Shown piece by piece: positions 2,086 to 52,314 of a stretch of DNA of 53,071 nucleotides. Each line of letters opens with the position of its first letter. Position 1 is the stretch's first letter. Position numbers and translations under genes: made by a program. The notes below the pieces were generated by a model. It did not search any database, was not told the origin of the DNA, and saw only the letters and a program-made list of their open reading frames with translations. Source of the DNA: a virus (taxonomy: Duplodnaviria > Caudoviricetes); IMG/VR virus record IMGVR_UViG_3300027811_000005, positions 1 to 53,071 of that record; one strand, given 5' to 3'.

Positions 2086-2205
2086 AATCCCCCCACCCCC
2101 GTCCCCTCCCCCGCGCGAGTACGCGCAGGAGAGGGGTGTGAGGCGGGACTGATAAGAAACGATTATGCGTGCCGTGCCTGGCACGGGGCGTGCTGAGGAA
2201 GATAG

Positions 2206-5200
2206 ATGACGCATCCAATTCCGTTTGCGATTGATGATCTGGTAGTTTGCGACAATTCTAACTGGCTTTCGTCGTTTGCGCCTGATGCGATGGGCTTGCC
2301 GCAGGTGAATGCACGACTCGGGCAGAGGTTCGGGGCGTGGCCGGTGCTCAGCGGGTTGGACCGACCAGGTCACAAGTTGACGATGACGACGATCTTTGGC
2401 GATACGCTTACGCCGGCGCAACGCGAGGCCGCGCGGTTGGTGTTGTTGCAGAAGGCCAATTACGAGCGGGAGGAACTGAAACGGTTGACGGCGGCGGATG
2501 GGGTGATCCCCGGCGTTGCGCCGTCGAGCGTGCTGCTGGCATTAGGGCCGTGGGACGTGGCGCGGAGTGGATCAACGTATGCGCCGCGAGATTTACTCGA
2601 TCAGGATACGATCGGGACGGTGACTGGCGGGGTGATTTGGCGGCCAGGAAGGTTCGGCAAGGCGGTGCAGATTGCAGAGGCGACAACGAACCTCATCTCG
2701 AATCCCAGCTTTGAAACGAACACGACCGGGTGGTTACCTGGGGCTGGAAATTCTATCACGCAAAGCACAAACTTTGCCCACGTCGGTTCATATTCAGCAA
2801 AATGTATCGAAGGCGGGGGTAAATATTTTGTTACGTACGTGCCCTATATTGCTGGTCAACCCTACATTCTTTCGCTTTGTGCCCGACGTGCTGACGGTGC
2901 TGCGGTGACGGCGGGGGACATCTATAATCTGTTACTGGCAAATATTGCCATGACCACTGCATCCATCACTTCTCTTGGAGACGGATGGTATAAAATTATT
3001 TCCAGTGTCCTGGTTGCTGCGGCGACGGAAACGCATAATGCAGGCTGGTATGTCGGGGATGGACGCACACTCTACGTGGACGCAGTTCAAGTGGAACAAA
3101 AAGCCTACGCCACGCCTTACTGCGACGGTTCACTTGGAACGGGCCATAGCTGGAGTGGAACGGCCCATGCCAGCACCAGCAGTCGGACGGCAGCGAGTTG
3201 CAAGTTAACGAATCCGATCTCTACGACGGCAGGGACGGTGGCACTATGGTGGCGTTATCCCAATGCAAGCACAACGACACAGACGTCACCCTACTTGTTT
3301 TCCGAGGGAAATCTCAAGGCATACTATCTAGCTGCGGATGATAAACTCTATTTTACGGATGGAATAAATACCATCAGCACGGCGGCGCTGACGTTCAGTG
3401 CATGGACGTGGATGCACCTAGAGTTCACATGGGCGTCTGGAGCACTGGCGATTTACATAAATGGGGCGAGCGTGGCGACCGGAGCGACCTATACGGCTCC
3501 GACGCTGGGGGCTTTTCTCTATTTTGGAAGCGACACAAGTGGAGCGAATCAATGCAACGGGTTGCTGGAAGGCGTGTTAGTGATGGGTGTGGCGTTGACC
3601 GCGACGCAGGTGGCAGCGCTGTATGCCAACTCATTGGCGGCGGACTGGAAGGCGCGCTGGCTGAATGTGAAGTGCGAGGCGTGCCAGCCTCTCCAGAATA
3701 GCAATCACGGGTTGGTGAGTACGTTTGCCGTGGATAAGGAGGTGCGCTGGCGAAGCCGGGACGGGGCGCAGTTCTGGCGGGTGATCGCGGCAACCGGCTC
3801 TTTTGTGGTGAACAACGACGGGGACGACGATGCCTATCCTGTGATCTATATCACGCCCAAGACGGCCAAGACCGGAAATGTCTGGAGTTACAAGCGGTGG
3901 ATCCCGGTCAAGTGGATGGCCAGCGATGCGGCCACGAATTATCCAACGGACATTTGTAATGACGGCTTTGACACGCAGACGCTTGTGACGGCCAGCAAGA
4001 TGCAGGCGAACGGGGACGATTTGCGCGTGAAGGTGGATGGCACGGAGGTTGCTCGGTGGCTGGACGGGATCAACACTGCGACTACGAAGGTGTGGTGCAA
4101 CCTGAACTTTTTGGCAAGCCAGACGGCGACGATGGCGGTCATTGGCGACACGACCGGCACGACATTGACTTCAACGACTGACATCACGAACTGGCCGAGC
4201 ACCGGGATTCTCTATATTGACACTGAGGCGATCACTTACACAGGTAAAAGCGTCGCAAATAAGCAGTTCACCGGTTGCACCCGTGGGGCGAAAGGGACTA
4301 CAGCGGCCACCCATGCTGCCAGCGCAACGGCGTATTGGATTCAGCACGACATCTGGATCCTCTATGGAAACGCCGGAGCGAGCGCGCCGACGGTGGACGA
4401 TAACTACAAACCGGCGTTTGAGTTGGATCACAGCACTAATACGAGTTGGGTGTATGAGGTGTTTGGGGAGGATGATAGGCTCAGGACTGCAGCCTGGGAA
4501 TTAAATGCTTACTATACGACTGGAGGAGGCGGAGAGGCTACGTCTCTGACAAGCGCAAATCATGGAACCCTGGCTACTCCGTGGACAGATGTCGGCATTG
4601 CAATGGTCTGCACAGGAGGATCGGGGAAAGCACGACTTACAGTCTATAATCCATGCGGCATCACATCTGCTAATTTTTCAAATGGAGAATACTACCGTAC
4701 CACGGTATACTGTGATACGCTCAGTGTCGTGTCGTCTGTGAATGGCAGCGCTTGGGCAACTGAAGCAAATGTTTCATTAACATGTGATTCGACTTGGCGT
4801 GCATGGTCGTTTAATGCAGCTATAACGGCGGGAAGCAAGTATGTTGGTTTCGACATGTATGGTTACGCAAATCCTGCAGCAACCGTGTATAGTGAGTTGG
4901 CTGACGCAACGCTCACACTTAACTCAACCTTTACGCCTGTGGTTGTCCTCGGGGCCGAGCAGTCCAACTATGACCTGGCTGTGACGCTGACCAATTCAAC
5001 GACGGGAGAGTCGGTTCAAGTCACACTGACAATGCAGATCAGCCAGACGCTTGAAATAGACACGGATAACAAGACCGTGATCCTGCTGGCAGATAATAGC
5101 AATCAACGGCAGGCGCTCACGGAGGTGGGCGGGGCTAGACTGGACTGGCTGAGGCTGGTAACAGGGAATAATACGCTGACGTGGAGTGACACGGGAACGG

Positions 5201-5247
5201 TCAGCGTCGAGGTAGAGATTCTGTTCGACCGGAGGTACATCGAATGA
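2206..5247 (+). CDS. Distal tail/baseplate protein with inserted carbohydrate-binding and LamG-like domains
   Basis: Follows TMP; TNLISNPSFE...DAVQVEQ CBM-like segment; LamG-like WMHLEFTW...IYING...ALTATQVAALY; Dit-like C-terminus (LEIDTDNKTV...LVTGNNTLTW). Confidence 0.75.
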   Translation: MTHPIPFAIDDLVVCDNSNWLSSFAPDAMGLPQVNARLGQRFGAWPVLSGLDRPGHKLTMTTIFGDTLTPAQREAARLVLLQKANYEREELKRLTAADGVIPGVAPSSVLLALGPWDVARSGSTYAPRDLLDQDTIGTVTGGVIWRPGRFGKAVQIAEATTNLISNPSFETNTTGWLPGAGNSITQSTNFAHVGSYSAKCIEGGGKYFVTYVPYIAGQPYILSLCARRADGAAVTAGDIYNLLLANIAMTTASITSLGDGWYKIISSVLVAAATETHNAGWYVGDGRTLYVDAVQVEQKAYATPYCDGSLGTGHSWSGTAHASTSSRTAASCKLTNPISTTAGTVALWWRYPNASTTTQTSPYLFSEGNLKAYYLAADDKLYFTDGINTISTAALTFSAWTWMHLEFTWASGALAIYINGASVATGATYTAPTLGAFLYFGSDTSGANQCNGLLEGVLVMGVALTATQVAALYANSLAADWKARWLNVKCEACQPLQNSNHGLVSTFAVDKEVRWRSRDGAQFWRVIAATGSFVVNNDGDDDAYPVIYITPKTAKTGNVWSYKRWIPVKWMASDAATNYPTDICNDGFDTQTLVTASKMQANGDDLRVKVDGTEVARWLDGINTATTKVWCNLNFLASQTATMAVIGDTTGTTLTSTTDITNWPSTGILYIDTEAITYTGKSVANKQFTGCTRGAKGTTAATHAASATAYWIQHDIWILYGNAGASAPTVDDNYKPAFELDHSTNTSWVYEVFGEDDRLRTAAWELNAYYTTGGGGEATSLTSANHGTLATPWTDVGIAMVCTGGSGKARLTVYNPCGITSANFSNGEYYRTTVYCDTLSVVSSVNGSAWATEANVSLTCDSTWRAWSFNAAITAGSKYVGFDMYGYANPAATVYSELADATLTLNSTFTPVVVLGAEQSNYDLAVTLTNSTTGESVQVTLTMQISQTLEIDTDNKTVILLADNSNQRQALTEVGGARLDWLRLVTGNNTLTWSDTGTVSVEVEILFDRRYIE

Positions 5248-5564
5248 GAACGAACTTGAAATTTTGGGTTGACGCCAACAATGCGCGTTGGATGAGGATG
5301 ACATTGCTCGGCGACGGATGGCCGACCGGGTGGGGCGTGCCGTACTCATACCTGGCTTCGTGGGGCTTTTTGCCGTATTTCAAGGTGCCGCCAGCGGATC
5401 CGGGGGGGTTACTGGCCGGGCAGGACTATGCCATGAGCGACACGCTGGCCTTGCAGTCATTTGATGCTATGCTCGACCTTTTGCATCAACTCATCAGCGC
5501 GCTCAAACCCGTTACGCCGGAGAATTCCACATTTCTCGTCGAGGATGAGAGAGGATACACGTAG
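5244..5564 (+). CDS. Hypothetical tail-region protein
   Basis: ATGA overlap with the upstream gene; abuts the next gene. Confidence 0.55.
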   Translation: MRTNLKFWVDANNARWMRMTLLGDGWPTGWGVPYSYLASWGFLPYFKVPPADPGGLLAGQDYAMSDTLALQSFDAMLDLLHQLISALKPVTPENSTFLVEDERGYT

Positions 5565-6786: not shown

Positions 6787-6884
6787 GCCCTCATCCCCCG
6801 GCCCCTTCTCCCGAAGATCGGGAGAAGGGGAGAAGATCCTCATCCCCGCCCTTTCTCCCAAGGATTGGGGGAAGGGAGTTAGGA

Positions 6885-7814
6885 TTAGAGACGCCAGTTG
6901 GAGACGGGGGAGGCTTGACGGTGGGCGGTTTCGATGTCGGCCTGGGCGATGGCGAGATAGCGGCGCACCATCTCCATTGTGGAGTGTCCCAGGATGGTTT
7001 GCAGGGCGTAGGCATTGCCGCCATTGCGCAGAAAGTTGATGGCGAAGGTGTGCCGAAATCGGTGCGGGTGGCAATCGGGCACGCCGGCGCGCTCGCCGAC
7101 GCGGTGACAGAGTTTGATCAGGTCGTAACGTTCGAGTGGATGACCCTGAATCGTCAGGAAAACACGGTCGGCATTATCTTGTGGAGTGGGTCGGGTCGAT
7201 GTGTAACGCCAGATCGCCTGTGCGGTTGAGGCTGAAAACGGAATGACTCTCTCCTTGGTTCCTTTGCCTAAGACAAGCAACCGCTTGTTGGTCAGGTCGG
7301 TGTTGGACAGTTTCAACTCACACAGTTCTGTGGCACGGATGCCGGTATCCAGCAAAGTGAGGATCACGGCACGGTTTCTAAGGGCGGAGCACAGCCCGTG
7401 GGTACATTCACGCTTGCCGGGTCGAGAGTAGGGGCGTGACTTGGCGAGTGCATTGAGGAGAGCGCGCACATCAGTCTCCGTGAAGGGGACGATGGCGCGT
7501 ATCTCTGGATCGGGAGCATCAATATCCCGGATGAGGTTGTGGGGGACGATGTCTTCTTTGACGCACCAAGTCCAGAGCGCGGATAGACCGACGTGGATAT
7601 TCAGCAGGGTCTTTTTTGAGATGCCAGTCTGTGCGTTGAGGAAAGCACAGACCTGATCATCCGTGATAGAGGCGATGAGGGGATCGTCTGGAAAGTGGCG
7701 CTGGAGCTTGCCGAATGAGTTGGTGTAGTCGGCTATTGTGTGCGGGCTGAGTCGCCTGGCCTGAGCGGCGATGAGGTAGCCTTGCACGGCTTGTGAGAGT
7801 GTGATCTTATCCAT
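6885..7814 (-). CDS. int: Tyrosine integrase (phage integrase)
   Basis: LLDTGIRATEL, GKGTKER, HPHRFRHTFA, ILGHSTMEMVRRY catalytic motifs; ATG at 7814; next to tRNA fragment. Confidence 0.95.
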   Translation of the reverse strand: MDKITLSQAVQGYLIAAQARRLSPHTIADYTNSFGKLQRHFPDDPLIASITDDQVCAFLNAQTGISKKTLLNIHVGLSALWTWCVKEDIVPHNLIRDIDAPDPEIRAIVPFTETDVRALLNALAKSRPYSRPGKRECTHGLCSALRNRAVILTLLDTGIRATELCELKLSNTDLTNKRLLVLGKGTKERVIPFSASTAQAIWRYTSTRPTPQDNADRVFLTIQGHPLERYDLIKLCHRVGERAGVPDCHPHRFRHTFAINFLRNGGNAYALQTILGHSTMEMVRRYLAIAQADIETAHRQASPVSNWRL

Positions 7815-8000
7815 GTGTCCCCCGGTTGTGTGGCTCGGAACCGATAACAATGAGTTATCAGACCAGAAATTACGTTTTTTTTATTACTGGATGGGAGGTT
7901 AGCCAAGTGGCGTAGGGTAGGGTGATTTTGTCAGATCTGCTCGCTTGTGTCCACATGGGTGATGAGAATTGGGCAACCGTGAAGACACTGGTTGCACTTT

Positions 8001-8054
8001 GTCGGGGCGAGAGGACTTGAACCTCCGACCCCACGGTCCCAAACCGTGTGCTAC
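8001..8054 (-). other. attP core: 3' portion of tRNA-Pro(TGG)
   Basis: Minus strand GTAGCACACGG-TTTGGGA-CCGTGGGGTCGGAGGTTCAAGTCCTCTCGCCCCGAC has anticodon arm, T-arm and 3' acceptor strand, but the 5' acceptor strand is absent. Confidence 0.9.
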
Positions 8055-8233
8055 GAGGTTGCTACCAGTGGTCACATGTTTGGGTGCTAGGGCGTACCAT
8101 GTGGTCTCCGGTGCAACGAACCATGTGGACAGTGGTTGTTACAAGGGAATGGTACGCATTTTCTTGTAACAGTTATCCCCCTACCCTCTTCACTTGCACT
8201 GCCCCCCCCCACGATAACAGAATGGAGACGACG

Positions 8234-8387: not shown

Positions 8388-8747
8388 TTAGGGCAGCATG
8401 AGTTTCCGTTTTGCCATCTCAATGAGCATGGCGGTTATGACTTGGATGGATGCTGTCCCGCTTGTTTCTGCCAGTTTCTTTTTCACGCGATCCCAGAGCG
8501 TATCATCTCGAGCTGCGTCCAAGAATTCGTGCCCCTGCCAGGTTAGCCTTTTGGCCTGCCACCAAAAGCGCTGTTGAATGTTCATGTTATGCGCTTCTAT
8601 CAGGCCAGCTTCTCCAAGTAGCATGAGGTGGTACGAGACCGTCTCCGGGGATTGACCTTCGATATTCACCTCGAATGGGATCTCTGTGAATGGATGCTTT
8701 TCAATCTCCAGCAGGATTTGCCGGATGAGTTCCATGTCGCGTTTCAT
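8388..8747 (-). CDS. DUF2513-family protein
   Basis: MKRDMELIRQILL...YHLMLL.EAGLI...RLTWQGHEFLD signature. Confidence 0.9.
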   Translation of the reverse strand: MKRDMELIRQILLEIEKHPFTEIPFEVNIEGQSPETVSYHLMLLGEAGLIEAHNMNIQQRFWWQAKRLTWQGHEFLDAARDDTLWDRVKKKLAETSGTASIQVITAMLIEMAKRKLMLP

Positions 8748-9931: not shown

Positions 9932-10312
9932 TCAGACACTCTGCTTCTTCCCACGGCTCTCTCTCTTTTTGCGTTCCAACTTGAGCCGCGCTATCTGTAG
10001 CACTTCCTCTTGATCCGCTTCGCTCAGGTCGGGAAAGATGTGGAGTATCTCGTCCACCAAGGCGCTATGGTTGCCTTGAGGAGATATGGGCAGCAACTCT
10101 AGTTTTCTGAGCACGACTTCCGGGGGGATGTTTATGGCCTGGGCGAGTGCGATACCAGCATCCCACCCAATACCCTGTACACCTGATCTGGCCTTACTTA
10201 TGACCGAATGTGCGATTCCTGCTTTTTTTGCAACGGCATAGTCAGTCAGATCTAGGTCATGCAAGCGTGTATCTAGCCACTTGAAGAATGTAGGGGGTGT
10301 CTGTTTACTCAT
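9932..10312 (-). CDS. XRE-family HTH immunity repressor (CI-like)
   Basis: LTDYAVAKKAGIAHSVISKARSG HTH; divergent from cro-like gene. Confidence 0.8.
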   Translation of the reverse strand: MSKQTPPTFFKWLDTRLHDLDLTDYAVAKKAGIAHSVISKARSGVQGIGWDAGIALAQAINIPPEVVLRKLELLPISPQGNHSALVDEILHIFPDLSEADQEEVLQIARLKLERKKRESRGKKQSV

Positions 10313-10316
10313 AGTT

Positions 10317-10401
10317 TTGCCTGTTGACAATTATGCCTCATTTTGCCGTGTGAAAACACTCAAAATATTGCCTATTGACACGGATATATATATATGGTAT
10401 T
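10317..10401. promoter_or_regulatory. Lysis/lysogeny switch region with repeated TTGCCT(G/A)TTGACA
   Basis: AT-rich divergent intergenic region; direct repeats at ~10317 and ~10368; TTGACA 10375-10380. Confidence 0.55.
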
Positions 10402-10451
10402 ATGTGTGCGTAGGGACGGGATTGAGTGTGTAAGTACAGTAGGAGAAGATC

Positions 10452-11751: not shown

Positions 11752-12084
11752 ATGGGAATGATCATGTTGAATGGGACGCAGGCGCTCAACCTGGATCAAG
11801 TGGTGGACGTGAAATACACGCCAGAGCATGAAGGTGATCAACCTACCGAATACTTTGATCAGGAAATTGGCAAGATGGTGTGTGGACTGTTCATCATCAT
11901 TTTGCATCCAGGGATTGAGATCACGACGACGGCGGTCAAGCTCGAGACGCTAGAGTATGACTATAGCCCGTTCCATGCTGTCGGTGGGTGTGCGAGCAAG
12001 GTCATCACACTGACGGGTGAAGATGCCGATATTGTATGGAAGTATATCGAATCCCGCTGCGATGTTCCAGTGTTGGAGGCGTGA
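11752..12084 (+). CDS. Hypothetical protein
   Basis: MGMIMLNG... start after REP-like repeat; stop overlaps recombinase ATG. Confidence 0.6.
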   Translation: MGMIMLNGTQALNLDQVVDVKYTPEHEGDQPTEYFDQEIGKMVCGLFIIILHPGIEITTTAVKLETLEYDYSPFHAVGGCASKVITLTGEDADIVWKYIESRCDVPVLEA

Positions 12085-13463: not shown

Positions 13464-13556
13464 GCCCTCATCCCTTCGACCTTGCTCAGGGCAAGCCCTG
13501 CCCCCCTTATCCCAAAGATTGGGAGTAGGGAGGCAGGAGGCGATCTGGAGGCTTAT

Positions 13557-14441: not shown

Positions 14442-14595
14442 ACATTGTAGCAAGGTGCTGGGGGCTGGTGGCGTCCAGGCTGGCCAGCCCCTAGCGCCTT
14501 GATATGCTCCGCCAAAGTGGGCGCGGAAACCACGCCCCTACGGTACTGATAATAAGGCATTATGAGTTCAAAGGGAAGAAACGGGAGGGGAACGG

Positions 14596-17391: not shown

Positions 17392-17436
17392 CCCTCAACC
17401 CCCGGCCCCTTCTCCCAAGGATTGGGAGAAGGGGAG

Positions 17437-17742
17437 ATGATGCAGGGGACTGATAAGAATGGGTTATGGGTGCCGGGTACGGCACTGAGCGTGCTGAGTA
17501 CAGCACGGAAGCTGGGGTGGGATATGTCGTTTGAACTTTTATGCGGGGGGGCGTTGGTTTTGGGTGGGGTTGCGGTGGGGATCGCATTCGCCCAGATCTG
17601 GCAGAACAAGACGGTCCGAGCCGTGGCGGCACTAGTTGTTTTGGTTGGCGGAGGCTGGTTCATCGCCAATCACTATGAGCAAATCGTCCAGGCTTGGGAA
17701 CAGATCAATCATCTGGTCGGGTTCCTGGGAGGGTTGCGATGA
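17437..17742 (+). CDS. Membrane protein
   Basis: Two TM helices; start uncertain. Confidence 0.55.
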   Translation: MMQGTDKNGLWVPGTALSVLSTARKLGWDMSFELLCGGALVLGGVAVGIAFAQIWQNKTVRAVAALVVLVGGGWFIANHYEQIVQAWEQINHLVGFLGGLR

Positions 17743-19264: not shown

Positions 19265-20681
19265 CGAGATTGCTCATTACTGGAACGCTATTCTTGCCAC
19301 GCTTGAGCAACGCAGGCTGACGAATGAGCGGACTCGCCAGGGCGGAGTGATCGTGCCGGAAGCTGACGCTTACGTGCTACCCGACCGGGTTGTGTTCGTG
19401 TTGGATATGCAACGTCTGGCGGGAATCTCGCGCGAGACATGGCTCACACCTAATCTCTGGAAGCAGTTCGGGGCAGCGCTCCAGGGACGGAGAACGTTCG
19501 TATCCGACAGCGGCGGGCTGGCGATCACCGTGGCACGTGAACCGAGCGCAACGCTGGGCAAAAAGCTACCGGAGCGGATTCTGTTGTCCGAGGAGCACTT
19601 GCTTGACAAGCCGTACCAGGTGTGCCTGGGTTATACCACCCGTTATCCTGTGACGCTGGATATTGCCGGAGAGCACCGCGCGATTCTGATCGGAGGGACG
19701 AGCGGGGGCGGAAAGACGAACTTGATGCAGTCTATCATTCTGCAACTGGCAGCCAAGCATACGCCGGCGGAGGTTCAATTCGCCATCGTGGACACCAAGT
19801 TGGTTGACTTTGGCGAAGATTACGCCAGCCTACCTAATCTGTTAGCGGACATTGCGCACACGTTGGACGAGGCTGACCGGCTGATCGAGCAAGTGGAGGC
19901 CGAGCGCACACGCCGCCAGATGTTGATGGCGCAGGCGGGCGTGGCGCGATGGGAAAAGTATGCTGACCCTGAACCCTTGCCGTTGCTCGTGTTGATGGTG
20001 GACGAGGCGGCTGATTTCGCTCGCCGACCGGCAATGAGGACGTTGAAAGAGGTCGCCCGCAAGGGACGCGCGTTCGGGATCAGCGTGGTGGTCGGGACGC
20101 AACGGCCCTCGAACGACGTGATTGATGCGCAGGTGAAGGCAAATCTTCCTACGGCGATCTCGTTCCAGACCCGGTCGGACGTTGAGAGCCGGGTCATTCT
20201 TGGAGTGAGCGGCGCGGAGAAACTATGCCGGAGGGGCATGGCGCTGATGTTCGTGGGTGGGCGCTGGGAGACGGTGCAGACACTGCTTGTGGAAGACGGG
20301 GCGGCTCACCGGTTGATTCAAGAGCATGTGCAGGTTGAACACCCCGCGCTATCCGAGATCGAGCAGCAGTTGGTGGCGACAGCGGTGGATGAACTGGGCG
20401 GGGAGTTCAAGATCGTTGGACTGTATGCCAAATATCGAGGCAAGATCAGCAAGCGGGCACTGACAGCACTGGCAAAGCAGTGGGAGGCGCGGGGCTGGCT
20501 ATCGCACCGGGTTGATGCGACGACAGCACGGCGTGTCACCAATGAACTGATGCGTGTCACCAGTCGTGACACCAGTCGTGACACCAATTTGGGGGCCGTA
20601 TCACCGCCTGACACCCGTTTCACCGTATCACCAGATTTGGTGGAGACGGTAGGGGGCGGGACTGATAAGAATGAATTATGA
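19257..20681 (+). CDS. FtsK/SpoIIIE (TraB-like) DNA translocase
   Basis: GGTSGGGKT Walker A, IVDTK, LMVDEAAD Walker B, RKGRAFGI, GTQRP, GAEKL; possible C-terminal wHTH. Confidence 0.9.
   Translation: MSDEIAHYWNAILATLEQRRLTNERTRQGGVIVPEADAYVLPDRVVFVLDMQRLAGISRETWLTPNLWKQFGAALQGRRTFVSDSGGLAITVAREPSATLGKKLPERILLSEEHLLDKPYQVCLGYTTRYPVTLDIAGEHRAILIGGTSGGGKTNLMQSIILQLAAKHTPAEVQFAIVDTKLVDFGEDYASLPNLLADIAHTLDEADRLIEQVEAERTRRQMLMAQAGVARWEKYADPEPLPLLVLMVDEAADFARRPAMRTLKEVARKGRAFGISVVVGTQRPSNDVIDAQVKANLPTAISFQTRSDVESRVILGVSGAEKLCRRGMALMFVGGRWETVQTLLVEDGAAHRLIQEHVQVEHPALSEIEQQLVATAVDELGGEFKIVGLYAKYRGKISKRALTALAKQWEARGWLSHRVDATTARRVTNELMRVTSRDTSRDTNLGAVSPPDTRFTVSPDLVETVGGGTDKNEL
20533..20632 (+). repeat. 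Eight 8-mer direct repeats (GTRWCACC-like), clt/TRS-like
   Basis: GTGTCACC x2, GTGACACC x2, GTATCACC x2, CTGACACC, GTTTCACC at the 3' end of the FtsK gene. Confidence 0.7.
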
Positions 20682-20813
20682 GAGCGGGGGAACCAGAATG
20701 AAAAAAGGCGTACACAAGGTATTCAAGGTAGCTGACCTTTATTGCGGCGCCGCCGTGGATTGTCGCATGGCGCTGGCGTTGTGCGGGGCGGCGATTCGGA
20801 TGACGAGGGGTGC

Positions 20814-22355: not shown

Positions 22356-22368
22356 ATACCCGCAGGGT

Positions 22369-22387
22369 GTCTAATAACGAGTTAGGT
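22369..22387 (+). other. attI-like site
   Basis: GTCTAAT-AACGA-GTTAGGT has the same geometry as the attI1 simple site (TAAA-N5-GTTRRRY); about 14 bp after the intI stop. Confidence 0.75.
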
Positions 22388-25598: not shown

Positions 25599-28500
25599 AT
25601 GTCAGTATTTGACGAGATCAAGGACAAACTGAGGATCGAGGATGTGATTGGCGAGACGGTGACGCTCAAGATGAGCGGGCACAGCATGACGGGGTTCTGC
25701 CCGTTTCACGACAATCACAATACGCCGGCGCTGGCTGTGTGGCCCGAGACGCAGACGTGGAAGTGCTTTGCCGGGTGCGGCAGCGGGGACGTGTTCGACT
25801 GGGCAGAAAAGCGCGATGGGATGGACAAGCGCGGGGTGCTCAAGCTGCTGGCGCGCAAGGCGGGGGTGGAATTGACGCTTGCCACGCCGGAGCAATTGAA
25901 GGCGCAGGAGAAGCGAAAGGAAGCGACGCTGGTGGCGCAGGTTGCGGCCGCGTTCTTTCGGAAGCGAATGACGGAGGCGGCTGGCGCGCCTGGCGTGGAA
26001 TATGCCAGGAGCCGTGGCTGGGCCAGCGATACGTTGAAGGGGTTGGGGTATTTTGGGAAGGATTGGGACGGGCTGAAAAAGCACATGGCAGAGGCAGGCG
26101 TTGATCTGGAGTGTTCGGCGGCTGTGGCGCTGGTTGGGTATCGCGGCGATGTGGCGGCGTGGGGGAAGCGTTGGGGCGTGCGTGTGACTGATGAGGAGAT
26201 CAAGGAGGGGAAGATCCACGCGATGCCGCCAGAGATGCTGATGTATTGCCATGTGGAGGGGCGGAGTGTGGTGTATGTGAGCGGGAGGAGATTGCCCTCA
26301 TCCCCAACCCTTCTCCCCCTGGGGGAAGGGGGTATGCCCAAGTCGTGGAATCCGCCGGCGCGGCTGTTTGGGGAGAGGCAGCCATATTTCAATGCGTGTT
26401 TCAAGCATGGCAAGCCGGTGTTGATTGTGGAGGGCCAGGGGGATGCCAAGACGCTGGAAGAGTGGAAGTTGCCGGGGATTGCGTTGGCTGGGTGCGGGAC
26501 TGATAACGCTTTGTTATCGGTGCTGAAAAAGTGCGGGCAGGTGACGGTTGCGCTCGATCACGACCGGGCCGGGGAGTATGCTGCGACGGGGTTGATTCCC
26601 TACGGGACTGAGCCGCAGCCTTTCACGGAGCGGGTGAAGCGAAGCCTGTGCTGGAAGTTGGTCGAGGCCGGATTGCCCGCGACGAAGGTGAAGGTCTTGA
26701 CGTGGCCGCGCGAGGAGGGGAAGGATAAGGCCGATGCGAACGATTGCCTGAAGGCAGGCATGACGGGGGAGCAGGTCGGGGCGCTGGTGAAGGGAGCCGA
26801 ATCATTCCTGGATGTGATGCTGGGGTTCTCTTCCGATGATGGGAAGGACGAGGCAGAGCGGGACGAGGCGCGGATGATGGTGTTCGAGTTGCTGGCCGAT
26901 GTGGATGCGCGCTGGGTGATCGCGCGAAAGAAGCAACTCGCCAAGCAGCTCGATTACGATTCGGATACGTTCGAGCGCATGTTGATGGAGGCTCGGAAGC
27001 GGGCGGGGCAGGATGAGACGGGCCGCCCGATGTATGGCGTGTCCGGAGGACGGATGGTTCACAACAATTTCGACCGGATGGGGAATCCCTACGAGCAGAC
27101 GTTGCTCAACGGGGTGTTGAACATTACGGGCGACCTGGTGCTGGACGACGGGGAGAAACAAATGCGCCGATTCACGATAGAGTTCACGCGGGAGAACGGC
27201 GCCAAGTTCCAGCCGACCGAGGTTGACGTGGAGGATTACGCTCCTTTGAATTGGCTCTATTCTGCCTGGGGCGTGAATGCGATCGTGCCGGCTGGGCAGA
27301 GCGTGAAAGAGCACCTGCGAGTGGCGATGCTAACGCTTTCCAAGAACGTCGAGACGCTGCACCGGTATCAACACACGGGCTACCACAATATTGACGGACG
27401 GATGGTGTATCTGACGACGGTGGGCGCCGTTGGACGGGATGGGGTGCAGGTTGAGATCGAGCGGGCGGCGGACCGGTACCGGCTGCCGAGCAAGCCTGAA
27501 AACGTGGTCGAGGCGGCCAAGGCAAGTTTCAGGAGCCTGGGCGCTGGGAACCTGTACATCACGGTCCCACTGTTTTCAACCATGTACCTCGCGCCGCTCT
27601 CTTCTATTCTGGAGCCTGCGTTTTCAGTGTGGCTGTATGGGACAACTGAAACCTACAAGAGCGCCATCACGGCGCTGATGATGTGTCACTATGGCCGCTT
27701 CCTCTACAACACCCCGCCCGGATCATGGAGCGGGAGCACGGAGGTTGGCTTGCGTGTGATGGCGTTCATGCTCAAGGACATGCCGTTCTGGATTGACGAC
27801 TTTACGGCGCAGGCGACGGAGCGCGGAGACGACAACTTGCACGACCGGGCCGGGCGGGTGTTGCGGGATTGGGCCAACCGGACCGGCGGGCTGAAGGGGA
27901 CGGCGGAGGGGGGATTACGCAAGGTTCACAAGCCGCGCGGGATCGTGGTCAACAGCGCAGAGATCTTGCCGTCCGTGCGCTCGATCCGGTCAAGGCTACT
28001 GATGCTGGAAATGCAAAAGGGGTTTGTGAACCTGGACGACATTTTGGAGCGGTACAAGAACAGCGAGGTTGATCTATATCCTCACGCGATGGCAGCATAC
28101 GTACTCTGGGTAGGGGATCACTATGCCGAGTTGGAGAAAAGCCTCCCGCTTCGGCGCGATCAACTGGTGGCAGAGTGCAGAAACCAGAAAGGGGACTCGC
28201 GCGAATACAACCACGTGGCTACGGAGATGGTGGCCTTTGAACTGGCGACGCGATGGATGAATGAGATCGGGGCGATTGATACCATTGAAGCGAGCGCGAT
28301 GGTGAAATTCGCGTTCGATATGATGATGGCGGCAGCAGACGAGCAGACGGTTGACACACAGGTGGACGAGAACCCGGTCAACAAGTTTATGAATGAGCTG
28401 GAGCAGATGCTGGCGGATGGGACGGCGTTCGTCCGCCACGCAGATACTCCGAATGAAGAGACTCGCTCATTGCCGGAATCGGGACAACGGTCAGTGAATG

Positions 28501-31155: not shown

Positions 31156-31325
31156 AGGGGCAACCACGATGGTTGCTCCTACGGGACTGATAAGAAAGAC
31201 TTATCGAATCAGGATACTGAACCGCCAGATGCTTCGTGAAACGAAAAAGCCGCGCTTGCGGGCGCGGCTGTCGAACTTTGACAACTGAATCAACTATAAG
31301 AAAACTTAACATACCCCTCATGCAT

Positions 31326-34282: not shown

Positions 34283-34290
34283 GATGGCTC

Positions 34291-34635: not shown

Positions 34636-35060
34636 TGTTGTTGCTCCTCTCTGTCAATCTACACATGATTTTATCATAAATCATGTTGGTTGTCAATAGG
34701 GAAAATGGGCACAAATTTTCAGGATAGTAGGGCATGTAATTCTGAACCGATAATAACGGATTATGAGAGCCGGGGGCGGCACGAGAGTGGTGCTGGCGTA
34801 GAGATTCTTTTGGCGCTGCGCGCCCTCAGAATGACAGTTGCGGGGGGGATTGACAAGCCGGGGGGGTTTGTGGTAGGATAAGGGCGATCTGGGCAGATCA
34901 CATCGGGGCGTTTTTTGTTACCCCGTGAACAACTGTATACTTGGCGGCAAAGAGCCGCCGTTGAGCAAACGCCTCCTGATCTGCCCAGATCCGGGTGTGA
35001 CACTCAACGGCGGCTTTTTGCGTTTGGGCCTGTTGAGGCTCAAGAAAGGATCTGGGCAAA

Positions 35061-35456: not shown

Positions 35457-35529
35457 TTTTGTTGTTACAGGAGAATGATGGTTATTCTGTTGTAACAGGG
35501 TGGTGGGGATTAAATTTCGCCCAAATATA

Positions 35530-35559
35530 TTGACAGGAGTTGCGGTGTGGTGGTAATAT
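35530..35559 (+). promoter_or_regulatory. Sigma70-like promoter upstream of lysis/late genes
   Basis: TTGACA-N18-TAATAT with TG extension. Confidence 0.5.
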
Positions 35560-35765
35560 TGTAATGTGAGCCTGGACGCTCCGGGATTTGGCGTCCAGGC
35601 CTTTTTGTTATCCCGGGGCGATCCAGCACTCAGATCGGAGTTGCGATGAATGGGTGGGATCGCACGAGGGTGAAGTTCATTGTGCCGCATACGCAGTAGC
35701 GTATTGCGGCGTTTTCGTTTTGGGCAGTGGGCGCGGAGACCGCGCCCCTACGGAGGAGGAGTGAA

Positions 35766-39276: not shown

Positions 39277-39448
39277 AGGGACCCCACCCCTGGCCCCCCC
39301 CCCGTCGAGTACAACGGGAGAGGGGAAGAAGCGGGACTGATAATCATTTGTTATGCGTGCCGGCCCCCCATCCCGCGTTGGGTACAACGCGACCTTCTCC
39401 CAAGGATTGGGAGAAGGGGGGAGAGTGTAGAACTGGAACGGAAGGTGA

Positions 39449-42904: not shown

Positions 42905-43015
42905 TGGCCCCCACCCCAGCCCCCCCGCGAGTACGCAGGAGAGGGAGAACGGGACTGATAAGCAATTGTTATTGGAGCGTGATTGAGATTGGAGATTGGA
43001 GATTAGGGAGTAGAG

Positions 43016-44020
43016 ATGCCTGACGAGCCTGGAGTTATTCGGGTTATCAATGCGTTCCGCGATGCGCTGTTGAGACGAGAGGAAGCGCAAATGCTGGATA
43101 TGGTTGCGCACTGGCTCCTGGTGGAAAACGCGCTGGAAGGGCAGATCACGGCGCTGGCATTGGACATTGATCGGCGGAGAGTTGCGGGGGAAACGATCAA
43201 GCCGTGGAGGTTGGCGGAGTTGGAGCGGTATCGTTCGCTCTTGGCACAGGCTCAAGGCGAGCTCGTCCAGTATACCCGATACGCAGATGTATTGATTACG
43301 GAGCAACAGGTGCGGTGGGGGAATGACGGCGCTGAACATGCGCTGACGACGCTCGATGCACTGTACCGCGATTCCGGTGTTGTTCGGGCTGCTTTCGACA
43401 TTTTGCCGACAGAGGTGATCGAGAGCATGGCCGGGTTGACGGCGTCTGGCTCTCCGCTGCGCAATCTATTGGCCCAGGCGTGGCCGGATGCTGTTGATGG
43501 ATTGACGCAGGCGTTGGTTGAGGCTATCGCCAAGGGACAGAATCCGCGCGTTACGGCACGGATGATGGCGAACGGGTTGGCGGGTGGATTGCAGCGATGC
43601 CTAGTGCTCGCGCGGACGGAGCAGTTGAGGGTATACCGCGAGGCCACGCGCCAGCAGTATATCAAGAGCGGGGTGGTGACGCGCTACAAGCGGATTGCGG
43701 CGAAGCAGGGGCGGACGTGTCTGGCGTGCATTTTGAGCGACGGGAAGGTGTACGAGTTGGAGAGCGCGTTCGAGGAACATCCGTGTGGCCGTTGCGCGCT
43801 GGTCCCGATCGTTGAAGATTTGCCAGAGGTGACATGGACAAACGGACGGGATTGGTTTTCCGGGCTGAAGGCAGATGAACAGCAGGCGATCATGGGCAAG
43901 CAGTTGTTCACTGCGTGGAAGGCGGGGAAGGTGGAATTTGACAATATGGTCAAGACGCACCAGGACGAGACTTGGGGTAACTCGTTGGTGTCCAAGTCCT
44001 TGAAGGAGATGGGGCTATGA
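43016..44020 (+). CDS. MuF-like minor head protein
   Basis: LARTEQ, RTCLAC..SDG, HPCGRCAL. Confidence 0.88.
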   Translation: MPDEPGVIRVINAFRDALLRREEAQMLDMVAHWLLVENALEGQITALALDIDRRRVAGETIKPWRLAELERYRSLLAQAQGELVQYTRYADVLITEQQVRWGNDGAEHALTTLDALYRDSGVVRAAFDILPTEVIESMAGLTASGSPLRNLLAQAWPDAVDGLTQALVEAIAKGQNPRVTARMMANGLAGGLQRCLVLARTEQLRVYREATRQQYIKSGVVTRYKRIAAKQGRTCLACILSDGKVYELESAFEEHPCGRCALVPIVEDLPEVTWTNGRDWFSGLKADEQQAIMGKQLFTAWKAGKVEFDNMVKTHQDETWGNSLVSKSLKEMGL

Positions 44021-44469
44021 GCGGTGAATGGAAGCTGTCAAATGAGGAATTATCAGGCGCAGTGGCGACCTGGATGGGCGAGCAAGGTAATTTTGCAGTT
44101 GACTGCGACGATGCTTTCCGGGTGATTGACCGGCTGAGTGTGCTTGGATATGTGGTGACGTTCCAGCGCGACCAGGCCGGGACGCGGGTTACTATCGTCA
44201 AGGGTGAGCGCGGCCAGGAGCACAGCGGAGAATTCATGCCGTGCGTGTTGTGTGAGTTGGTGGCGCGGATGGTGGAGGATGGGGAGTTGAACCCCACCCC
44301 CAGCCCCTCCCCTGTCCCTTCGGTACAGGAGAGGGGAGGGGGTGCGTTGGATGACGGGGTGGTGACGAAGGAGGAGGCCAGCGAGGCGGGGAAGGTGCTT
44401 GTGGCTCGGAAGCGTAGAGGTGCGCCACTTCCTACACCGGATTATGTGTTACAAGAAAATGCTGGGTGA
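44017..44469 (+). CDS. Hypothetical protein
   Basis: ATGA overlap; contains an in-frame palindromic repeat at 44291-44337. Confidence 0.55.
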   Translation: MSGEWKLSNEELSGAVATWMGEQGNFAVDCDDAFRVIDRLSVLGYVVTFQRDQAGTRVTIVKGERGQEHSGEFMPCVLCELVARMVEDGELNPTPSPSPVPSVQERGGGALDDGVVTKEEASEAGKVLVARKRRGAPLPTPDYVLQENAG

Positions 44470-44618
44470 TTTTGTTGTAACAGGCCCTCATCCCGCGTTG
44501 GGTACAACGTGCCCTTCTCCCAAGGCTTGGGAGAAGAGGAGAGGAAGAGCGGGACTGATAATGTGTTGTTATGCGTTCCGAGTACAGAACGGGAGCGGGG
44601 TTGTAGTCAGGAGGAGGT

Positions 44619-44960: not shown

Positions 44961-45012
44961 GAGTTCAAATTTCAAGGCAGCGAGATGCTGCGATAGAAAA
45001 GGAGATGCCGAG

Positions 45013-45669
45013 ATGGCACAGGAACAGGGGCAGCAACAGGGTCAACAGCAAGGGCAGCAGCAAGGCCAACAACAGGGTCAACAACAAGGCCAGCAACAAG
45101 GTCAGCAACAAGGCCAACAGCAAGGGCAGCAACAAGGCCAGCAACAAGGCCAACAGCAAGGGCAGCAACCGCAGGTCACGTGGGAGATGTGGCTGGCGGA
45201 ACAACCGGAAGATGTGCACAAGTTGTACGAGTCTCACACATCCGGGCTGCGAAGTGCGCTGCAATCCGAGAGGGATCAGCGCTCTGATTTGGCAAAGCAA
45301 CTCAAGGAGATGGCCGGGAAACAGAAGGAAGGCAGCGACGAGCGCAAGGCGCTGGATGAGATGTCCAAGAGACTGGAGGAGGCGAACGCACGCGCTGATT
45401 TCTTTGAGGATGCGGCTCGACCGGAGATCGGGTGCCGCAATCCAAAGTTGGCCTGGCTGGCCGTGCAAAATGGCGAGGGATACGTCAGGCGCGGCAAGGG
45501 CGGCACCAGTGCTATTGACTGGCTGGCTTTGAAGGCTGATTACCCAGAGTTGTTCGGCGCGGCTCAACAAGGACAAGCCCGCTCGAATGCCGGGACCGGA
45601 ACAGGCGCACAGGTTGGTGCGCCGGAGGACATGGACACGATGCTCAGGCGGGCGGCTGGGCGGCGGTAA
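45013..45669 (+). CDS. Capsid scaffolding protein
   Basis: Upstream of MCP; coiled coil, LKADYPELF; N-terminal (QQQG)n. Confidence 0.8.
   Translation: MAQEQGQQQGQQQGQQQGQQQGQQQGQQQGQQQGQQQGQQQGQQQGQQQGQQPQVTWEMWLAEQPEDVHKLYESHTSGLRSALQSERDQRSDLAKQLKEMAGKQKEGSDERKALDEMSKRLEEANARADFFEDAARPEIGCRNPKLAWLAVQNGEGYVRRGKGGTSAIDWLALKADYPELFGAAQQGQARSNAGTGTGAQVGAPEDMDTMLRRAAGRR
45019..45168 (+). repeat. 12-bp tandem repeat encoding about 12 x GQQQ
   Basis: GGNCARCARCAR units with synonymous variation. Confidence 0.95.
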
Positions 45670-45731: not shown

Positions 45732-46673
45732 ATGGCTTACAACAGTTTGATCTCCCGCACCGATATGGGCGGGATGATTCCAGTGGAGTATGCACGCGAG
45801 ATCATTCAGGGGGCTACCGAGCAAAGCGCAGTGATGCGGCTCGGGCGCCGCTTGCGCGACATGACGACGCAGCAACGCACGATGCCGGTGCTAAGCGCGC
45901 TGCCGTTGGCGTATTTTGTCAATGGCGATACCGGCTTGAAGAAGACGAGCGAGGTGAACTGGGAAGGCATTACAATCACGGCCGAGGAGCTGGCAGTGAT
46001 CGTGCCGATTCCACAGAGCGCACTCGACGACAACCAGTTCCCGATCTGGGACGAGGTCAAACCGCTGGCGCAAGAAGCGGCGGGGCTGGCCTTTGACCAA
46101 GCTGTGCTTTACGGGACGAATGCACCAGCTTCATGGCCAGATGACATTCTGGCTACAGCGGTGGCGGCCAGCAATACGGTTGCGCTGGGAACTGGCGCTG
46201 ACCTGTACGAGGACTTGCTGGGTGAGAATGGCGTGATCGCCTTGCTGGAGGCGGAAGGTTACGTGCCTGACGGGCACATCGGGGCGGTGACACTCAAGAG
46301 CAAGTTGCGCGGAACGCGCGATGCGAACGGGCAACCGATCTTCAAGACCTCGATGCAGGACCAGACGCGGTACGAACTGGACGGCTCCCCGATCTTGTTC
46401 CCGCTGAACGGCGCGGTTGACGTGACGGCCTCGCTGTTGGTGTCTGGCTCTTGGCGGACTTTGGTGTATGCGGTGCGCCAAGATATTTCGTGGTTCATCG
46501 CCGACCAGGGCGTGATCCAGGATGCTGGCGGGAACATCGTCTACAACTTGTTCCAGCAAGACATGGTGGCGCTGCGCTTGGTGCTGCGGCTGGGCTGGCA
46601 ACTGCCGAACCCGGTCAATCGCATCCAGGGCACGAAGGCGAGCCGCTGTGCATTCGCGGTGTTGACACCGTAA
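45732..46673 (+). CDS. Major capsid protein (HK97 fold)
   Basis: IPVEYAREII, AEELAVIVPIP, FDQAVLYG, NLFQQDMVALR. Confidence 0.95.
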   Translation: MAYNSLISRTDMGGMIPVEYAREIIQGATEQSAVMRLGRRLRDMTTQQRTMPVLSALPLAYFVNGDTGLKKTSEVNWEGITITAEELAVIVPIPQSALDDNQFPIWDEVKPLAQEAAGLAFDQAVLYGTNAPASWPDDILATAVAASNTVALGTGADLYEDLLGENGVIALLEAEGYVPDGHIGAVTLKSKLRGTRDANGQPIFKTSMQDQTRYELDGSPILFPLNGAVDVTASLLVSGSWRTLVYAVRQDISWFIADQGVIQDAGGNIVYNLFQQDMVALRLVLRLGWQLPNPVNRIQGTKASRCAFAVLTP

Positions 46674-48730: not shown

Positions 48731-48874
48731 GGCCCCACCCCCTGCCCCTCCCCCCATCGAGGACGATGGGAGAGGGGAGAGAGCGGGACTGATAACCGTT
48801 TGTTATGCGTGCTGACCTCATCCCCCGGCCCCTTCTCCCAAGGATTGGGAGAAGGGGAGGAAGAGGAAGGTTGA

Positions 48875-51322: not shown

Positions 51323-51535
51323 GCCGGCTCTATTTGTTGTACCCTCATCCCCAACTCTTCCCCTGGCGAGGGAAGGGAGAGGGTTTCCCCACCCCAGTTT
51401 CCTACCCCGTGTAGCGCGTTGGGTACAACGGCTGCGGGGTAGGAACGGGGAGAGGATGGATGTGGGGGGGAGAGAACAAGGGCGAGGTCGGAGTCGGAGG
51501 GCGCGGGACACGCGCCACCTACGGTGGGGGGAAAG

Positions 51536-51937
51536 ATGGCACGCAATATTACGGTTACGCTAGGCGGGCAGTCATATCAAGTGAACCAGTTGCCGATCAA
51601 GGCGGCGCGGGAGTGGCGCACAGAGTTCCAAAAGCCGTTCGAGGAGATTGCGCTGGCGCTTTCGGGTGCCGGCAGCATTGAATTGACGGACGGGAAGAAT
51701 CTGGGCGGGCTGCTCGATACGTTGCGCGGGGTGTTGCTGCGGTCGCCAGATACGCTGCTGGAGATGCTTTACGCTTACTCGCCGCTGTTGAAGGCGGATT
51801 CGGCGCGCATCGAGGCGGAGGCGTTCGACGACGAGGTGATGCTGGCCTTTGTGGAGGTGCTGCGCCTGGCATACCCTTTCGAGAGCCTGATGAGCTTTCT
51901 CAGTGGCCTGGGGAGCAAGGCGACCGAGACGAAATAG
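51536..51937 (+). CDS. Tail assembly chaperone (gpG-like)
   Basis: After the tube gene; ITVTLGGQSYQV; contains slippery heptamer. Confidence 0.75.
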   Translation: MARNITVTLGGQSYQVNQLPIKAAREWRTEFQKPFEEIALALSGAGSIELTDGKNLGGLLDTLRGVLLRSPDTLLEMLYAYSPLLKADSARIEAEAFDDEVMLAFVEVLRLAYPFESLMSFLSGLGSKATETK

Positions 51938-52152
51938 CTCTGTCCGAGTGGGGACAGTGGGCAGACGATTTGGACGATCTGACGCTGGCGGAGTTGGTGG
52001 GCGCGTATGCCCGGCGGAAGCGCTGGGAGGCGCGGCTGCTGGCTATCGAGGTGGTGAAGGCGCTTGGCGAGGTGATGAATCCAGGGTCAACGGCGGCGGG
52101 GAGCCAGGAGAAGGGGATCAGCGCGGAGCAGTTTGCGAGGCTGATGGGATAG
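51874..52152 (+). CDS. -1 frameshift extension of tail chaperone (gpGT-like)
   Basis: C CCT TTC (X XXY YYZ) at 51874-51880 in the correct phase; -1 frame open to 52152. Confidence 0.75.
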   Translation, partial: PFREPDELSQWPGEQGDRDEIALSEWGQWADDLDDLTLAELVGAYARRKRWEARLLAIEVVKALGEVMNPGSTAAGSQEKGISAEQFARLMG

Positions 52153-52314
52153 GACCTCATCCCCCGACCCCTTCTCCCAGGGGGAGAAGGGGGTGAGAGC
52201 CGGGACTGATAAGTGGTTGTTATGCGTGCCGGGGTATGGCGCGGAGGGCAACCACGAGGGTTGCCCCTACAGGACGGGGGCTTGACTTTTGGACGCGAGG
52301 TTAGGAGCAGGGGC

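Follow-up and report, generated by a model that had tools for sequence, protein, structure and literature searches.

A 31-bp element at thirteen sites of a soil siphovirus genome and its possible role as a set of polar operators

Some temperate phages carry regulatory repeats that are spread over the whole genome, and the stoperators are the closest described case. In the account of PMC5721134, stoperators are 13-bp sites, intergenic, mainly in one orientation and present in up to 20 copies. The R4-like phages of Streptomyces are also described as having a stoperator system (PMC10276819), and the structure of a stoperator repressor is described in PMC9283540. Here we analyze a 31-bp element with ATAA and TTAT arms around a 7-bp spacer. 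It is present thirteen times in the IMG/VR virus record IMGVR_UViG_3300027811_000005. The window, that is, the whole stretch of DNA analyzed, is this entire record (53,071 bp, classed as "linear", CheckV completeness 100%). It is the complete 53-kb genome of a temperate siphovirus from soil, with a GC content of 57%.

The sources on Cluster A mycobacteriophages, Rhodococcus Cluster CA and Streptomyces R4-like phages describe features that the window shares: many phage-specific copies, intergenic and mostly in one orientation, in a temperate siphovirus. Two other systems are comparable. The repressor of phage phiC31 binds conserved inverted repeats (CIRs) in many intergenic regions, and we take this system as a lead only. 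The CIRs are symmetric and 17 bp long, and they cluster in the early region, close to a family of early promoters. In contrast, the element of the window is 31 bp long, largely asymmetric and genome-wide. The PeSLs of T4-like phages contain an ordinary host-type early promoter. As PMC4122927 and PMC2839356 present them, PeSLs are repeated cassettes of a stem-loop and a transcription signal between genes, and exchange points by plain homology. Likewise, a stem-loop is joined to the motif between genes in the window (9 of the 10 sites that follow + strand genes), and the flanks are reassorted at one site. However, the 13 sites carry no sigma-70-like hexamer pair, and insertions and deletions linked to PeSLs are known between close relatives. 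Most likely, the element is a further form of the regulatory repeats that other temperate phages carry across their genomes.

The thirteen copies of the element

The pattern ATAA-N7-TTAT has 13 matches in the window against 0.12 expected (the largest count in a shuffle was 1). Their ATAA arms start at 2152, 7844, 14549, 17453, 20665, 26503, 31190, 34750, 39340, 42958, 44558, 48792 and 52209, and the sites are named by these positions. The full pattern GGGACTGATAA-N7-TTAT gives 10 matches, 10/10 on the + strand and 0 in reverse, against 0.00 expected and 0 for a reversed-pattern control. These 10 copies are identical over 15 fixed bases.

The conserved region extends over 31 bp and not 22, with the consensus C-GGGACTG-ATAA-N7-TTAT-gnGWgCnG. 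The extra conserved positions are C-8 (12/13), G+17 (12/13), A/T+18 (13/13), C+20 (13/13) and G+22 (11/13). Both ATAA and TTAT are invariant (13/13). The head is GGGACTG at ten sites and degenerate at three: GGAACCG (7844), GGTACTG (14549) and TGAACCG (34750). The best-conserved right-hand positions outside the arms (+17, +18, +20 and +22) mirror -3, -4, -6 and -8, and the arm symmetry of each site is 6 to 9 of 12 positions. All 13 spacers differ in sequence, yet they are constrained. Each carries exactly one of two triplets, nAA at +4..+6 (seven sites) or TTG at +8..+10 (six sites). This rule may reflect a functional asymmetry, or it may be the mark of two lineages of copies.

Orientation was judged with a weight matrix made from the 10 exact copies; ATAA-N7-TTAT is self-reverse-complementary, hence strandless. 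Eleven of the 13 sites are clearly on the + strand. Site 7844 scores 28.3 on the minus strand versus 22.0 on the + strand, and 34750 is ambiguous (19.5 on minus versus 18.3 on +). When both strands were scanned with the matrix, nothing else in the genome exceeded 12 bits (the top score of 10 shuffles was 6.0). Therefore, no site lies inside the leftward gene blocks.

Gaps were defined as non-coding stretches of at least 40 bp on our own gene map. There are 38 of them, covering 9.9% of the genome, and they hold 10 of the 13 sites. Orientation follows the neighboring gene: the 11 + sites lie among + strand genes, and the copy beside int reads better on the minus strand. Around the genome, neighboring sites are 1.6-6.7 kb apart, and the coefficient of variation (CV) of these distances is 0.33. 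Among 20,000 uniform random draws, a fraction of 5e-05 attained this CV; when 13 of the 38 gaps were drawn instead, none of 20,000 draws did. The copy inside the primase gene (3.2 kb) divides an interval of otherwise 10.5 kb, which keeps the spacing.

Much of this had been described in an earlier note on the same DNA. The thirteen sites, a 7-bp spacer different in every copy and the mostly intergenic placement all stand. So do a copy just upstream of int (7844, 29 nt from the start codon), two copies bracketing the inverted ibrAB operon (31190 and 34750, around a leftward PAPS-reductase/ParB-like block) and one inside the primase gene (26503, in frame). The GGGACTG head needs correction in 7844, 14549 and 34750. 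The claim of a single orientation clearly holds for 11 sites; 7844 scores better on the minus strand, facing int, and 34750 is ambiguous.

Hairpins accompany the motif. Of the 10 sites preceded by a + strand gene, 9 have a GC-rich hairpin between the stop codon and the motif. A co-oriented start codon lies at offsets of 19-95 past TTAT at 9 sites. At about five sites (2152, 17453, 34750, 44558 and 52209), a hairpin begins directly 3' of TTAT. The motif is not the tail of one repeat element, because the hairpin families that flank the sites vary and the same hairpins are present in many motif-free gaps. Cassettes of hairpin plus motif reach 82% identity over 89 nt. At 2152 the flanks are reassorted: the left one resembles those of 39340, 42958 and 48792, and the right one that of 17453.

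Outside the phage, exact matches were found in IMG/VR in 47 stretches, with a single copy each. Metagenome contigs gave at least 118 stretches, all single among the matches listed, and none of the metagenome-contig matches listed has all five extra conserved flank positions. The motif is absent from 75 capsid-related and 67 integrase-related loci. Five genomes with related prophages, searched with up to 2 mismatches, show no excess over a reversed-pattern control. The 401 sampled Chloroflexota genomes gave, with up to 1 mismatch, 21 matches in 19 genomes (at most 2 per genome) versus about 27 for the control, by our own count. Three unpublished genomes are counted only in this tally and in that of the tRNA fragment discussed below. 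The earlier note had considered that the motif might be the tail of a host miniature inverted-repeat transposable element; the lack of excess over the control speaks against this in the genomes searched. As a repeat, the motif is confined to this phage among the sequences searched. The feature is real, highly non-random and lineage-specific.

Operators or promoters

We tentatively favor the reading that the thirteen elements are polar, genome-wide operators of a phage DNA-binding protein, similar to stoperators. The earlier note had offered genome-wide operators as its second option, and this option fits the tests best. It is preferred because the orientation follows transcription, the gaps are favored and the spacing is kept by a copy within a gene. 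Likewise, the leftward blocks are free of sites inside yet bracketed by them, and the motif is specific to the phage. This specificity is as expected, by analogy, of an immunity-type system. The operator reading also accommodates the lack of sigma-70 anatomy, because a protein-binding site needs no polymerase geometry.

More precisely, one phage-encoded, sequence-specific protein would bind all 13 elements, as a dimer or as a two-domain protein. Its firmer contacts would be with the near-invariant left block CGGGACTGATAA, and its weaker ones with the right block TTATgnGWgCnG, a partial mirror image. A near-invariant block of 12 bp with a weaker mirrored block suits such a protein. As polar operators, the bound sites would punctuate the rightward (lytic) units at intervals of about 4 kb and shield the leftward lysogeny and moron blocks. 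In the prophage, stray or read-through rightward transcription would be halted, as in stoperator silencing. The binding, the binder and the block to transcription are all proposed from the sequence. Candidate binders, all encoded on the minus strand, are a DUF2513 winged-helix protein (8388-8747), a helix-turn-helix (HTH) repressor (9932-10330) and a ParB/IbrB-like protein (31326-31988). Genes were named with Pfam, PHROGs and NCBIfam, and none of the three names a homologue of the stoperator repressor. Sequence searches of the PDB with the 433-aa, 224-aa and DUF2513 proteins gave no meaningful match.

Several observations weigh against polar operators or set the sites apart from known stoperators. 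The latter have 13 bp, are asymmetric and bind a monomer, whereas the element here has 31 bp with partial dyad symmetry. Beyond ATAA/TTAT, the symmetry of the outer arms is only suggestive (5/8 matched at the consensus level, P ~0.03 by our own binomial estimate). The stoperator repressor is a monomeric two-domain protein with an operator at the early promoter, and its phages infect Actinobacteria; the host here is probably from Chloroflexota, and the asymmetric, near-invariant left block of 12 bp is set within a longer, partly symmetric element. No copy is placed as an operator of the early lytic promoter would be: the predicted sigma-70-like promoters, early and late alike (10375, 34696, 34850 and 35530), are all free of overlap with the sites. 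Site 34750 lies between divergent predicted promoters, outside the predicted transcripts, where a roadblock would have nothing to block. The order of hairpin and then motif, as well as the hairpins that follow TTAT, fit a promoter at least equally well. Finally, a promoter-plus-terminator unit at 35530-35609, which resembles lambda PR', would already silence the late genes in the lysogen.

The best surviving alternative, an unlikely one in our judgement, is that the sites are phage-specific promoters within terminator-promoter cassettes. Each site would set rightward transcription going again directly beyond the hairpin that closes the preceding unit. The start point would be the G next to TTAT or a base shortly after it, and a putative phage factor would redirect the RNA polymerase of the host to it. 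Motifs of this type most often turn out to be repeated phage-specific promoters. The hairpin upstream of the motif and the start codon past TTAT (29 nt for int) agree with this explanation. The hairpins directly 3' of TTAT are placed as a 5'-terminal stabilizer would be, the conserved bases run 8 nt beyond TTAT, and the orientation tracks the downstream gene, int included. A similar layout is described for the PeSLs of T4-like phages in PMC4122927.

Nevertheless, the anatomy of the sites is not that of a sigma-70 promoter. The phage has its own strong predicted sigma-70-like promoters: 10375-10403 (+, TTGACA-17-TATTAT) beside the repressor, 34696-34668 (minus) before the ibrAB-like block, 34850-34879 (+) and 35530-35559 (+, TTGACA-18-TAATAT, with TG). 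None of the 13 sites has a sigma-70 hexamer pair. The -10-like A/T pattern is absent, and the would-be -7 position is G in 12/13. With only 12 bp between them, the conserved blocks cannot be a -35/-10 pair of the established sigma-70 spacing, which is larger. Pfam, PHROGs and NCBIfam detect no RNA polymerase or sigma factor. T7-type promoters differ likewise, as a match to the polymerase family is absent and the only open reading frames (ORFs) above 500 aa encode the tape measure, a tail protein and the primase. Promoter activity at 31190 would fire antisense into a convergent operon, and 26503 falls within the primase gene, in the stretch that encodes the Toprim domain. Resemblances to the consensus sequences of sigma-28, sigma-54, extracytoplasmic function (ECF) sigma factors, the DnaA box, integration host factor (IHF) and boxA were also weighed. 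All were set aside for wrong spacing or too few matches.

The control of the late genes points in the same direction. Within ~10 nt of the start expected for the 35530 promoter comes a GC hairpin plus T-run (35570-35609), and a second terminator-like site lies further on, at 35692-35708. By analogy, the layout of 35530-35715 resembles lambda PR'-tR' and suggests that the late genes are expressed from a single promoter by antitermination, which argues against a promoter at each site. The predicted host-type promoters sit where a temperate phage needs them, while the sites are without sigma-70 anatomy, and this favors operators. As a rough estimate, DNA-level control of rightward transcription, by operator or promoter taken jointly, is on balance probable.

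Alternative readings: loading sites, crossover sites and RNA signals

An improbable alternative is that the elements serve, at even intervals along the DNA, for loading or architecture and have no direct role in transcription. They might load the ParB/IbrB-like protein (with KorB-like spreading), guide the FtsK-like ATPase or serve the primase for priming on a displaced strand. The spacing, far more regular than chance, and the copy forced into coding sequence suggest that distance along the DNA matters. One-strand polarity holds throughout, and the phage encodes ParB-like and ParM-like proteins, an FtsK-like ATPase and a large primase. Site 20665 even overlaps the 3' end of the FtsK-like gene. 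However, the polar guide sequences KOPS, SRS and Chi are only 5-8 nt long and lie mostly inside genes, whereas these sites have 31 bp and avoid genes. Sites of the parS and OB type are full palindromes, unlike those of the window. Nothing in the data links the loading, guide or priming proteins to the motif.

More doubtful again is the first proposal of the earlier note, crossover sites for the shuffling of gene modules. The sites would be core sites of a tyrosine recombinase, which could be Int, the 459-aa recombinase 2 or host XerCD. The 7-bp spacers would make them heterospecific, and like-for-like junctions would swap modules between co-infecting relatives. With the same arms and thirteen spacers, any one module could be exchanged between co-infecting genomes while the gene order is kept. 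This natural counterpart of recombinase-mediated cassette exchange, beside an integron, we find just as doubtful.

The geometry fits a core site, with ~12-bp arms (one strong, one weak), a 7-bp spacer and inner ATAA/TTAT. The dif site of E. coli has the same inner ATAA/TTAT. The window encodes three tyrosine recombinases, and the sites are at the borders of functional modules, bracketing the leftward ibrAB-like block. The either/or asymmetry of the spacer and the reassorted flanks at 2152 would also agree. Compared with the Xer sites (dif, pdif, cer), the likeness consists of putative arms of ~11 bp that end in ATAA/TTAT around a short spacer, one arm being better conserved. The differences are a spacer of 7 bp and not 6, thirteen sites in direct orientation on one replicon, none on the other replicons searched and no association found with breakpoints. 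The pdif sites alternate in orientation. We searched for the host dif as CATAA-N6-TTATG in 5 genomes; the counts were like those of the control, and no candidate was shared.

On the other hand, the gene at 21375-22355 encodes a recombinase that belongs to the integron integrases (TIGR02249, E 1.5e-128, 428.6 bits with a cutoff of 265, full length). It has its own substrates, because canonical attC-like sites and an attI-like core adjoin the gene. The attC-like sites (RYYYAAC...GTTRRRY, 92-143 nt, -40 to -52 kcal/mol) are at ~22530, 22863, 23238, 24140 and 25369, and the attI-like GTTAGGT core is directly 3' of the integrase gene. In attC sites, such cores stand 50-150 nt apart and the DNA folds into a long, imperfect hairpin. 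The attC cores (RYYYAAC...GTTRRRY) are absent from all 13 sites, with the canonical ones elsewhere, at 22530-25511. We had also considered GTTAT/ATAAC in the sites as targets of this integrase and rejected it; the integron uses canonical GCCTAAC...GTTAGGC sites. The phage-borne integron spans 21375-25511, with the attI-like core and the attC-like sites in the orientation of the integrase gene. Among its cassettes are genes for a DpdA-like protein (23355-23921) and for an N6/N4 DNA methylase (24516-25430).

Int, for its part, has a tRNA 3' fragment at ~7993-8052 (minus) beside its gene. The fragment shows up to 94% identity over 51 nt, with matches in 318/401 Chloroflexota genomes, and ARAGORN finds no complete tRNA in the window. 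This fragment is likely the attP core for Int and lies ~150 bp from the motif. Recombinase 2 is an XerC/D-like protein of 459 aa, encoded within 12084-14441, whose match to the catalytic domain is split. Its downstream partner matches PHROG 6247, "DNA topoisomerase" (E 4e-113), with a weak DUF2399/Toprim-like match.

Comparative data offer no visible exchange partner, because the motif is multi-copy nowhere else searched (for metagenome contigs, among the matches listed). In a mosaic test over the 75 capsid-related loci, terL has 0 homologues and the adjacent portal gene 39. No site is present at this terL/portal junction, the sharpest of the mosaic. Homologue counts do drop across 48792 and 52209. 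The soil runs of a second study contain a ~95% variant of the phage in small contigs. The four DNA runs consist of contigs only, in which molecule ends are lacking and rare products are invisible. The variant contigs cover 3 sites: they run through 42958 and 48792, and one starts matching 3 nt before the GGGACTG head of 39340. The joints listed in variant contigs are in hairpin repeats, which are probable assembly repeats, and none is in a spacer.

The loci with homologues of the integron integrase have no excess of ATAA-N7-TTAT; the 132 loci related by capsid or integrase, 1.76 Mb taken together, contain 23 matches. Besides, a genome with thirteen active sites in direct repeat would be prone to deletions. 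The shuffling proposal and its expectation of synteny breakpoints in the spacers therefore gained nothing from these comparisons, within what contigs can reveal. Dyads of 11+7+11 bp that follow the integron-integrase homologues of relatives were tried as cognate sites and set aside; the H1 hairpins of the window share their form, so they are probably plain hairpins.

Very improbable, finally, are RNA-level signals, that is, AU-rich single-stranded sites for processing or antitermination between stabilizing stem-loops of a polycistronic transcript: the AU-rich core in a 57% GC genome, the GC-rich hairpins on one or both sides and the co-orientation with transcription would suit them, but 34750, between its divergent predicted promoters, would escape transcription, the invariant ATAA/TTAT arms offer no compensatory change to back a stem, two sites read about equally on either strand, and Rfam gives no family match at the gathering threshold.

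Genomic context, relatives and significance

Three families of hairpins recur around the sites. H1 is CCCCTTCTCCC-7 nt-GGGAGAAGGGG, often with CCCTCATCCCC before it. H2 is CCCCACCCC..CCCTCCCC-loop-GGGAGAGGGG, and a similar hairpin is present in the related prophage locus L066. H3 is GGGCAACC-loop-GGTTGCCCCTAC. GC-rich hairpin families populate the intergenic gaps, for example at 62-90, 6802-6830, 17406-17434 and 48829-48857.

The first site (2144..2174, +, CGGGACTG ATAA gaaacga TTAT GCGTGCCG, matrix score 44.7) lies between the tape-measure gene (106-2085) and a distal-tail/lectin gene (2206-5247). It has a GC hairpin upstream and another that starts directly 3' of TTAT. The second (7836..7866) is quasi-symmetric. 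It reads CGGAACCG ATAA caatgag TTAT CAGACCAG on the + strand (22.0) and CTGGTCTG ATAA ctcattg TTAT CGGTTCCG on the minus strand (28.3), with 29 nt between it and the ATG of int (7814). The leftward lysogeny block contains int (6885-7814), the DUF2513 gene and the HTH repressor gene, all on the minus strand.

The third site (14541..14571, +, CGGTACTG ATAA taaggca TTAT GAGTTCAA, 22.8) follows the pair of recombinase 2 and the Toprim-like protein. It precedes a block of membrane-protein and ParM-like genes (ParM-like, 15228-16220), with an ATG at offset 33 past TTAT. The fourth (17445..17475, +, GGGGACTG ATAA gaatggg TTAT GGGTGCCG, 45.0) has an H1 hairpin upstream and two small hairpins downstream. 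Its placement in a gap requires that a weak ORF call (17437-17742) be wrong. The fifth (20657..20687, +, CGGGACTG ATAA gaatgaa TTAT GAGAGCGG, 43.0) takes in the end of the FtsK-like ORF (19257-20681), from its final codons to its TGA stop. The sixth (26495..26525, +, CGGGACTG ATAA cgctttg TTAT CGGTGCTG, 42.9) is in frame within the Toprim-coding part of the primase ORF (25599-28793, 1064 aa), where it reads G T D N A L L and onward.

Around the ibrAB-like block (31326-34635, minus), which includes the ParB/IbrB-like gene, the seventh site (31182..31212, +, CGGGACTG ATAA gaaagac TTAT CGAATCAG, 36.0) is immediately 3' of an H3 hairpin. It faces the 3' end of the block, and a hairpin that resembles a two-way terminator comes next (31245-31270). 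The eighth (34742..34772, ambiguous, CTGAACCG ATAA taacgga TTAT GAGAGCCG, 18.3 on + and 19.5 on minus) is flanked by the divergent promoters of 34696-34668 (minus) and 34850-34879 (+). The GC skew is positive throughout the genome (0.09-0.28), except for values of 0.03 and -0.01 over this block (30001-34000). The drop is consistent with an inverted insertion.

To the right of the block, the leader at 34886-35060, after the 34850 promoter, carries GATCTGGGCA three times (one inverted). With its alternative GC stems, which run out into a T-run, it resembles an attenuator before the ORF at 35061-35456. This ORF of 131 aa, upstream of the PR'-like promoter, encodes a candidate antiterminator; no homology was found for it, and the ESM Atlas gave no usable match and a poor model. 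A second repeat, TGTTACAA-~20 nt-TTGTAACA, occurs in four copies, at 8135-8173, 28910-28948, 35461-35499 and 44447-44484. The third of these sits just 5' of the 35530 promoter. This repeat may be another operator or an RNA hairpin.

The remaining sites are among the structural genes. The ninth (39332..39362, +, CGGGACTG ATAA tcatttg TTAT GCGTGCCG, 49.6) precedes the packaging block (39449-42904), which includes the terminase gene terL (40104-41564) and the portal gene (41567-42904). It has H2 upstream and a small hairpin plus H1 downstream. The tenth (42950..42980, +, CGGGACTG ATAA gcaattg TTAT TGGAGCGT, 42.3) marks the boundary between the portal and MuF-like (43016-44020) genes. The eleventh (44550..44580, +, CGGGACTG ATAA tgtgttg TTAT GCGTTCCG, 43.4) is 5' of the scaffold/capsid block (capsid, 45732-46673). 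Within the putative scaffold gene, about 15 tandem 12-nt units (CAGCAACAAGGC and variants, 45007-45186) encode a Gln-Gln-Gln-Gly repeat. The twelfth (48784..48814, +, CGGGACTG ATAA ccgtttg TTAT GCGTGCTG, 46.4) precedes the connector/tail block, with H2 upstream and H1 downstream. The last (52201..52231, +, CGGGACTG ATAA gtggttg TTAT GCGTGCCG, 46.1) precedes the final ORFs that lead to the tape-measure gene, with H1 upstream and H3 downstream.

The host is probably a member of Chloroflexota, because 7 of the 10 loci with capsid relatives in genome contigs bear Chloroflexota names (Anaerolineae, Oscillochloris, Chloroflexales and others). A megablast of window positions 1-25000 against a phage collection found no match, and the relatives of terL in IMG/VR are a single locus, with 25% identity. 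None of the RNA sequencing runs listed carries the phage. One capsid homologue is on a 5.9-kb Chloroflexales contig (L061), where a CRISPR-like array was seen at 39-740, with a 37-nt repeat and spacers of ~36 nt.

Several capsid relatives have co-oriented repeats of their own upstream of genes. Locus L185 has three copies of CGCAGATTA, and L286 has CACGAAT three times, just before the ribosome-binding site. Conserved hairpins are present in L244, L064, L223, L225 and L066. The triple repeat of L185 is, judged by its sequence surroundings, the positional counterpart of site 34750, because both precede the same GAGATTC...GAATGAC hairpin element. This element (GAGATTCYT-hairpin-RGAATGAC) is at 34801-34837 in the window, at 6858, 8004 and 10272 in L185, and also in L129. 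In four soil metagenome runs, its 37-nt stretch has a depth many times that of the phage and many different flanks. L185 and an unrelated contig share the architecture, where changes in the outer stem compensate each other. The element matches no Rfam family.

If the elements are polar operators, silencing by repressor and stoperators would reach beyond the phages of Actinobacteria, to a phage of another phylum. The longer and partly symmetric site would then probably have an unrelated binding protein, and the genome-wide punctuation of lytic transcription would have arisen more than once. To our knowledge, an even spacing kept by a copy inside an essential gene has not been reported for such systems. 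The few small candidate DNA-binding proteins make the sites tractable at the bench. Moreover, the other lineage-specific repeats of the relatives make this group of phages a natural set for following the co-evolution of a signal and its reader.

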